Part shown: positions 44,945 to 45,410 of the stretch, in pieces | How the letters are laid out: each line of letters begins with the position of its first letter | Position numbering within the stretch: the first letter of the stretch is position 1 | Source of the DNA: Promethearchaeota archaeon | Lineage (GTDB): Archaea > Asgardarchaeota > Lokiarchaeia > Sigyniarchaeales > SOKP01 | NCBI GenBank assembly: GCA_019057865.1 | Contig: JAHLWP010000005.1 | Location: 92,912 to 156,911 of the forward strand | Length of the DNA stretch: 64,000 bases | Direction: 5' to 3' | Made by a program: the position numbers and the translations under genes | Notes under the pieces: generated by a model | What the model was told of the DNA's origin: nothing | What the model saw: the letters and a program-made list of their open reading frames with translations, nothing else | Database searches by the model: none

Positions 44945-45116
44945 TTATATCTTCAAATTAACTATAATAATTTAATTCAAATTACTTTTAATATTAATTG
45001 TTTGTCAGTATTATCCTTGTATTATATAAATATATTACTGCATTTTAGCCTTAAAATATTAAATAAAACAAGTTTAATATAAAAAATTTTGAAACAAGAG
45101 GGGTTTGTAAAAAAAA

Positions 45117-45307
45117 ATGAAGTTAATAACCTGTCATATACCCGAAAGCGGATTTAAATAGCTTAAATTCGCCGGAAAGCCTATCTGACGGGAATTGAAG
45201 AGCTTGTAAACATGAATCTCTATCCCAATCGGTCTGAAGTAATCCGTGTAGCGATACGTGATTTACTTAAAACCGAACTTAGCTCAATCCTAAGGAGAAA
45301 GGAATAA
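45117..45307 (+). CDS. Ribbon-helix-helix regulator (CdrS/aCcr1/CopG-like), split: join(45117..45146,45179..45307), 52 aa
   Basis: Joined translation MKLITCHIPE-AYLTGIEELVNMNLYPNRSEVIRVAIRDLLKTELSSILRRKE carries the YPNRSExIRxAIRDLL signature. TATA-like sequence upstream, T-tract downstream. Confidence 0.88.
45147..45178 (+). other. Candidate 32-nt BHB/BHL-type mRNA intron
   Basis: 10-bp intron stem 45148-57/45163-72; AAA bulge 45145-47; central helix 45141-44/45173-76; exon-exon stem 45130-40/45182-92; in-frame TAG at 45159. Confidence 0.8.
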
Positions 45308-45410
45308 TTTCTAAAATTTTTTCTTCTTTTCTTTTTTAAGTTCTAGCATTTACATTAGATCAGAAAGTGTTAATTATGATTTTATATAAAGCAAATCCTT
45401 TTCATAACTA

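Follow-up and report, generated by a model that had tools for sequence, protein, structure and literature searches.

A candidate bulge-helix-bulge intron in the coding sequence of a ribbon-helix-helix transcription factor gene of a Lokiarchaeial genome

Introduction

Two archaeal mRNAs are confirmed substrates of the endonuclease EndA: that of cbf5 (PMC2738675) and that of HVO_1309, which is cut in its 5' untranslated region (UTR) (PMC7714728; PMC10485636). Introns in other genes have been predicted but are unconfirmed, according to Yokobori 2009 (PMC2738675). A candidate intron of this type, 32 nt long, is described here in the gene of a small ribbon-helix-helix (RHH) transcription factor. 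The gene lies in a stretch of 64,000 nt (the window) from the Promethearchaeota archaeon assembly GCA_019057865.1 (contig JAHLWP010000005.1, positions 92,912 to 156,911, forward strand), and positions below are those of the window unless a genome and contig are named. An earlier note on this DNA proposed tRNA-type splicing of the mRNA at a motif of the bulge-helix-bulge (BHB) type and stated that such introns are known mainly from cbf5. A literature search agreed, returning cbf5 and the HVO_1309 5' UTR only. The same search, with most subscription papers outside its reach, turned up no account of introns in the mRNAs of Asgard archaea; papers on this group cover intron-rich tRNA genes only (PMC11291895; bioRxiv 10.64898/2026.10.13.758758).

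The closest described system is the cbf5 intron of Desulfurococcales and Sulfolobales (Watanabe 2002; Yoshinari 2006; Yokobori 2009, PMC2738675). Both are short introns of a coding sequence (16-44 nt in cbf5, 30-40 nt here), with a relaxed BHB, a cut (predicted here) after the second bulge base, a hetero-oligomeric EndA, and presence or absence among relatives. The RHH intron differs in belonging to an Asgard archaeon (Promethearchaeota), in interrupting a small transcription factor, and in being predicted from DNA. It is a minority allele (~8%), whereas the cbf5 intron is clade-wide; one RHH allele is displaced by one base, and the genome contains several further introns of this kind. The HVO_1309 intron of Haloferax volcanii is likewise an EndA-cut intron in an mRNA, but it is located in a UTR and cut by a homodimeric EndA, whereas the RHH intron breaks a reading frame. 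Non-canonical Asgard tRNA introns share with it short inserts at BHB-forming sites, a patchy distribution and a two-subunit EndA. The papers describing them concern tRNA genes, and the text of bioRxiv 10.64898/2026.10.13.758758 never mentions mRNA or cbf5. The RHH intron, as predicted, is a further case of the cbf5-type mRNA intron, a kind very rare in print. Together with the introns predicted in rps12 and acetyl-CoA synthetase of the same genome, it suggests that Asgard archaea, relatives of eukaryotes, splice mRNAs by tRNA machinery more often than reported, and that such interrupted genes are missed or called pseudogenes in annotations.

In the HAC1 and XBP1 mRNAs, two stem-loops are cut by the stress-activated nuclease IRE1, and this non-spliceosomal cut and the subsequent ligation (by RtcB in animals) restore the frame of a transcription factor; the intron is widely conserved. 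Non-spliceosomal cutting and ligation restoring a transcription-factor frame are also what is proposed for the RHH gene. Here, in contrast, cutting would fall to the housekeeping EndA, and the intron is missing from most orthologs.

Gene structure and predicted splice site

The frame opened by the ATG at 45117 reads MKLITCHIPE, then SGFK, and is halted by a TAG at 45159-61. The remaining RHH sequence opens at 45179 in a different frame and terminates with a TAA at 45305-07. The sequence confirms the broken frame described earlier. Deletion of 45147-45178 (32 nt) yields CCC GAA|GCC TAT and an RHH protein of 52 aa. Exon 1 (45117-45146, + strand) comprises codons 1-10, the residues of which are shared by intronless orthologs. 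It had been equated with exactly the DNA-contacting beta-ribbon; it does contain the ribbon strand, but also takes in the turn, because in an intronless ortholog, as modelled by AlphaFold, helix A begins at residue 10. The predicted EndA-type intron (45147-45178, +) shifts the frame and carries the in-frame TAG. Exon 2 (45179-45307, +) contains codons 11-52 and the TAA, encodes RHH helices A and B, and matches PF01402 above cut-off.

The junction was refolded, and the minimum-energy fold was the motif proposed in the earlier note, with its exon stem, central helix, AAA bulge and intron stem (all on the + strand). The exon-exon stem is formed by 45130-45140 and 45182-45192. The 5' strand of the central helix, CCCG (45141-45144), is exonic and consists of the Pro9 codon and the G of Glu10; the 3' strand, CGGA (45173-45176), is intronic, giving three G-C pairs and a C.A. 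The 5' bulge AA|A (45145-45147) has its predicted cut at 45146/45147, and the 3' bulge or loop AA|G-CC (45177-45181) at 45178/45179, following the rule that archaeal EndA cuts after the second bulge base (PMC2738675). Between them stands the intron hairpin (45148-45172), with a stem of 10 bp and the 5-nt loop AUAGC. Pairing probability was 0.99 for the intron stem (45148-57/45163-72) and 0.79 for the central pairs C45142-G45175, C45143-G45174 and G45144-C45173 (0.73 in a 280-nt context), with C45141.A45176 open. The exon stem was weaker in wider context (0.49-0.64).

An internal loop (1x6) takes up the 3' side, which makes the motif a relaxed one on the exon side. With this loop and the C.A pair it departs from a strict canonical BHB, which has a perfect helix and two clean 3-nt bulges; cbf5 motifs are themselves mostly unconventional (PMC2738675). 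On its own the window fold is moderately unusual (z -1.98; 9/200 shuffles), and it is the relatives, compared below, that provide the excess over chance. Sequence alone permits a junction at 28-30 nt with an identical product; of these registers, that of 30 nt alone forms the helix. A 31-nt register with CCGG was rejected because it breaks the frame, costs the stem one pair and is at odds with L146, a sister allele that shares the 32-nt register. Also rejected as a product was a 31-aa open reading frame (ORF) from an internal ATG at 45212, which has no record match and whose Met is not kept in the intron-bearing alleles of genus g28.

Same-site inserts in orthologs

The family set comprised 135 genomes, and alleles are named by genome (G; G000 is the window genome) or by locus or contig (L). 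The gene was matched in 109 genomes. With the window query, no ortholog was matched in the other 26/135, many of which are incomplete. About 150 fetched loci were uninterrupted, with PEAYL in 101 and a close variant in nearly all others. The insert is thus missing from these orthologs, and its exact removal restores their conserved frame, which bears out the claim that the cut rule excises exactly 45147-45178 and restores normal RHH spacing. The spliced product differed from 24 intronless genus orthologs by a mean of 20 synonymous and 0.9 nonsynonymous codons; by this ratio the RHH gene is under purifying selection.

Exhaustive spliced alignment of loci identified 14 distinct alleles with a 30-40-nt insert after codon 10, in 9/109 family genomes and 5 metagenome contigs. 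Insert lengths in the genomes were 30 nt (G016, G019, G142), 31 nt (G029), 32 nt (G000, G129), 39 nt (G128) and 40 nt (G120, G124); on the contigs they were 34 (L146), 30 (L148), 39 (L151), 35 (L152) and 39 nt (L155). Four of 42 genomes in the window's genus and five of 34 in genus g28 carry the intron. The inserts span all three length phases and come from independent assemblies, and the unspliced frame is truncated in 14/14. At the junction defined by the protein, the cut register restoring PEAY forms a relaxed BHB throughout, with three of four central pairs in the window and 3-4 in 14/14 alleles. The chance of such a helix after shuffling of the intron was 0.000-0.07 per allele. Covariation links the third base of the Pro9 codon to the intron base that it pairs with (C-G 9, U-A 2, A-U 1), at a score of 0.187 against 0.135 after shuffling and much less with the partners slid. 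In most alleles the core of the intron stem is TTGAA-5 nt-TTCAA; the window has TTTAA-ATAGC-TTAAA instead, and the difference is compensatory. Relatives with a same-position insert and covarying stems, for which a search had been suggested, were therefore found, and the hairpins of the 14 alleles look homologous by sequence.

In G029 (L010/L088, RHH codon 11; one assembly only) the 31-nt intron stands one base downstream, inside the Ala codon. Its motif has a perfect helix, CUGA/UCAG, with bulges AG|A and AA|C, and the conserved Ala is obtained from this register alone. The displacement represents either intron sliding or a separate insertion one base away. Proteins identical to two of the spliced products were also sought; only other, intronless alleles were returned, all of them 12 nt or more away from every allele with the intron.

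Exon adaptation to the predicted splice structure

Codons 4-8 pair with codons 11-17 at a mean of -10.6 kcal/mol in the 14 intron-bearing alleles, against -2.7 in the 94 alleles that lack the intron; a control region paired equally in both groups (-4.6 vs -4.7). All 14 intron-bearing alleles exceeded a synonymous-codon null (p<=0.024), as did 5% of the intronless alleles; kin are not independent, so the pooled p-value overstates the significance of the exon stem. The exon stem was stronger than that of a chosen intronless neighbour in 9/9 pairs. Intermediate stems (-5.6 to -7.4) were found in some intronless alleles syntenic with the window, and fit either recent intron loss or a predisposed site. 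The gene thus offers a measurable adaptation of synonymous sites to a splice structure. With 52 aa, paired intron-bearing and intronless alleles and one allele displaced by a single base, it is a handy test case.

Splicing enzymes and other candidate mRNA introns in the genome

Two EndA paralogues and RtcB are encoded in the genome. The EndA subunit on contig C71 has Aeropyrum pernix EndA alpha as its best match (E 3e-35) and retains both the region of the catalytic His and the Crenarchaea-specific loop with a KPR motif; the subunit on C69 is without the catalytic His. This loop and its Lys confer cleavage of relaxed motifs (PMC3241643), and because of the loop sequence a two-subunit EndA of broad specificity is predicted.

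The genome was scanned for BHB introns; the scan is no census, and most of its lower-ranked matches are unverified or false. The top four sites, all 30-32-nt hairpins between bulges, were in acetyl-CoA synthetase, a Roadblock-domain ORF, rps12 and the window RHH gene. The single-copy rps12 (G000:C27:25030-25059, - strand, locus L235) has a 30-nt BHB-type insert with a TAA, almost base-for-base the same in G033. The acetyl-CoA synthetase insert (G000:C82:548-579, - strand, locus L266) is 32 nt long, has a perfect 4-bp central helix and splits an Asp codon; the exon pieces match the AMP-binding Pfam profile contiguously, at 6-211 and 215-321. The Roadblock/LC7-domain ORF (G000:C56:2607-2638, + strand, locus L267) has a 32-nt BHB-type insert, with exon 1 alone confirmed.

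A stop-bearing break was also seen in the rps12 of G108, at a later site, and the other full-length family rps12 matches are uninterrupted. The cbf5 of this genome (G000:C75 ~125980-127000, locus L234) is uninterrupted in its N-terminal part through the catalytic-Asp motif. ARAGORN identified just 18 tRNA genes, most of them intron-bearing, in a genome rated 99.7% complete, which suggests that the tRNA genes are heavily interrupted.

Interpretation of the insert

We consider it very probable that the window insert is a spliced mRNA intron of the cbf5 type, whether it is a passenger or a switch, and probable that it is a passenger tolerated by the gene and spliced by EndA and RtcB. The two-subunit EndA would cut after A45146 and after A45178, and RtcB would ligate the exons to give the 52-aa CdrS-like RHH factor. 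The intron would be one of several ~30-nt mRNA introns of the genome, constitutively spliced, and kept only where the flanking codons hold a stem presenting it to EndA. Constitutive splicing is proposed because the cell must splice rps12. Several points weigh against this account. The window motif is imperfect (C.A pair, 1x6 loop), and alleles with a 39-40-nt insert have an irregular intron stem. All 14 alleles are kin, with about six of the g28 group forming one lineage, so that pooled statistics overstate independence. Cleavage and ligation of the window transcript are inferred, and passenger status is argued from the distribution of the intron.

The earlier note had read the splicing as an on-switch for a regulator, by analogy with HAC1 and XBP1, and had added that the relaxed motif could make it incomplete and tunable. 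The unspliced RNA does give no more than a 14-aa peptide, and the junction falls between ribbon strand and helices. The motif is relaxed, in vitro cleavage of such motifs is slower (PMC3241643), and the cbf5 intron has been proposed as a negative regulator (PMC2738675). However, the intron occurs in only 9/109 family genomes and is not conserved across orthologs of the regulator. At a locus that is mostly conserved, some 92% of the family's orthologs have no intron, among them those of the close syntenic relatives G012 and G033, the latter sharing the rps12 intron. Introns of the same build split the housekeeping genes for rps12 and acetyl-CoA synthetase, and the motif points to the housekeeping EndA. 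Tunability fares no better: the central helix is 4/4 in 8/14 alleles, and among the remaining 6 the mismatch shifts between four positions, so the relaxed pair is not conserved. Stops in the in-frame alleles are expected by chance (0.63-0.80), and a conserved stop is hence no sign of function. The position of the junction at the ribbon-helix boundary may be explained simply by the invariant Pro codon, which gives C-G pairs in an AT-rich gene (GC of the host genome is 29%). We consider the switch improbable. Similarly improbable is the combined reading in which EndA-type mini-introns have spread into many mRNAs of Lokiarchaeia and can shift by single bases, and the host has co-opted the one in the RHH gene as a condition-dependent switch. 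If true, such a switch would time the gain of the DNA-reading strand by a CdrS-like regulator and would be the archaeal parallel to HAC1/XBP1 control.

Two explanations without splicing were weighed. A ribosome could hop the insert, as in T4 gene 60, and 9/14 inserts do end in GAA, the last codon of exon 1, with a hairpin following. The landing codon is AAA in the window, though, and GTA, AGA, GAT or GAG elsewhere; the stop is usually not beside the take-off codon, and G029 requires a junction in mid-codon. Bypass also leaves the covarying central helix and the exon-exon stem unexplained, and is given hardly any credence here. A dead gene or an assembly artefact could be accommodated by a genome with four other RHH paralogues and by a family in which the ortholog is unmatched in so many, often incomplete, genomes. 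This reading is largely refuted, and now very unlikely, given the homologous inserts of 13 further alleles, assembled separately, the excess of synonymous over nonsynonymous differences in the spliced product, and an exon stem specific to intron-bearing alleles. Splicing by EndA and RtcB is preferred to both.

The RHH protein and its family

An intronless ortholog scores 28.7 bits against the RHH profile PF01402 (cut-off 20.5). The best NCBIfam match is CdrS (NF058555; E 3.7e-10), at 39.7 bits against a cut-off of 100, and the aCcr1 model (NF053762) gives 21.6 bits against 60. CdrS (PMC7439475) and aCcr1 are likewise stand-alone small RHH proteins with a PNRSE motif, but the window protein is below both NCBIfam cut-offs and its neighbours are metabolic genes, not ftsZ. 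The usual downstream neighbour is an amidohydrolase, a ZIP transporter or a similar metabolic gene, and no RHH match lies close to either ftsZ gene (C77 and C41). The resemblance to the cell-division regulators CdrS and aCcr1 noted earlier therefore holds at family level and does not extend to the NCBIfam models or to ftsZ linkage; judged by sequence, the protein is a CdrS-like RHH factor, one of five RHH paralogues in the genome. No PDB sequence match was found for it.

Origin of the intron

The gene tree (81 columns) was too weak to separate gain from loss: it implied 11 changes, 3 of them forced by well-supported branches, and a single clade of intron-bearing alleles was not rejected (p-AU 0.067). 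No clear second copy that could be a donor was found by pattern search of this genome or by a covariance model in five genomes; one weak covariance-model match (E 0.09) was rejected as ordinary coding DNA. Recombination of an intron block was examined in neighbour pairs, and the 5' block was more diverged than the 3' block in 3/7 (p<0.05), not in this genome. Some intronless alleles (L244-L246, L253, L255) have CCG GAA at the site, and a similar CCGGAA closes the window intron. Duplication of a palindromic CCGGAA-type word would create a BHB and is a possible route of intron birth.

Other features of the locus

A T-rich tract 3' of the stop (45317-45337, +), also present in orthologs, is likely an archaeal terminator. 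Just 5' of the ATG (45096-45116), AGGGG with T and A runs is conserved in the genus, and extra bases precede it here and in L146. ATA, ATT or ATC occupies the initiator position in ~43/152 uninterrupted loci (L019, L027, L054, L057-L069 and others), which suggests non-canonical initiation at these starts; the ATC starts seen (L019, L027) come after a GAGGTGA Shine-Dalgarno sequence. In L027/L199 (G019:C170:14116-14208) a partial tandem copy of the 3' part of the RHH gene lies 139 nt downstream, and second RHH copies were also seen nearby in G093 and G082.
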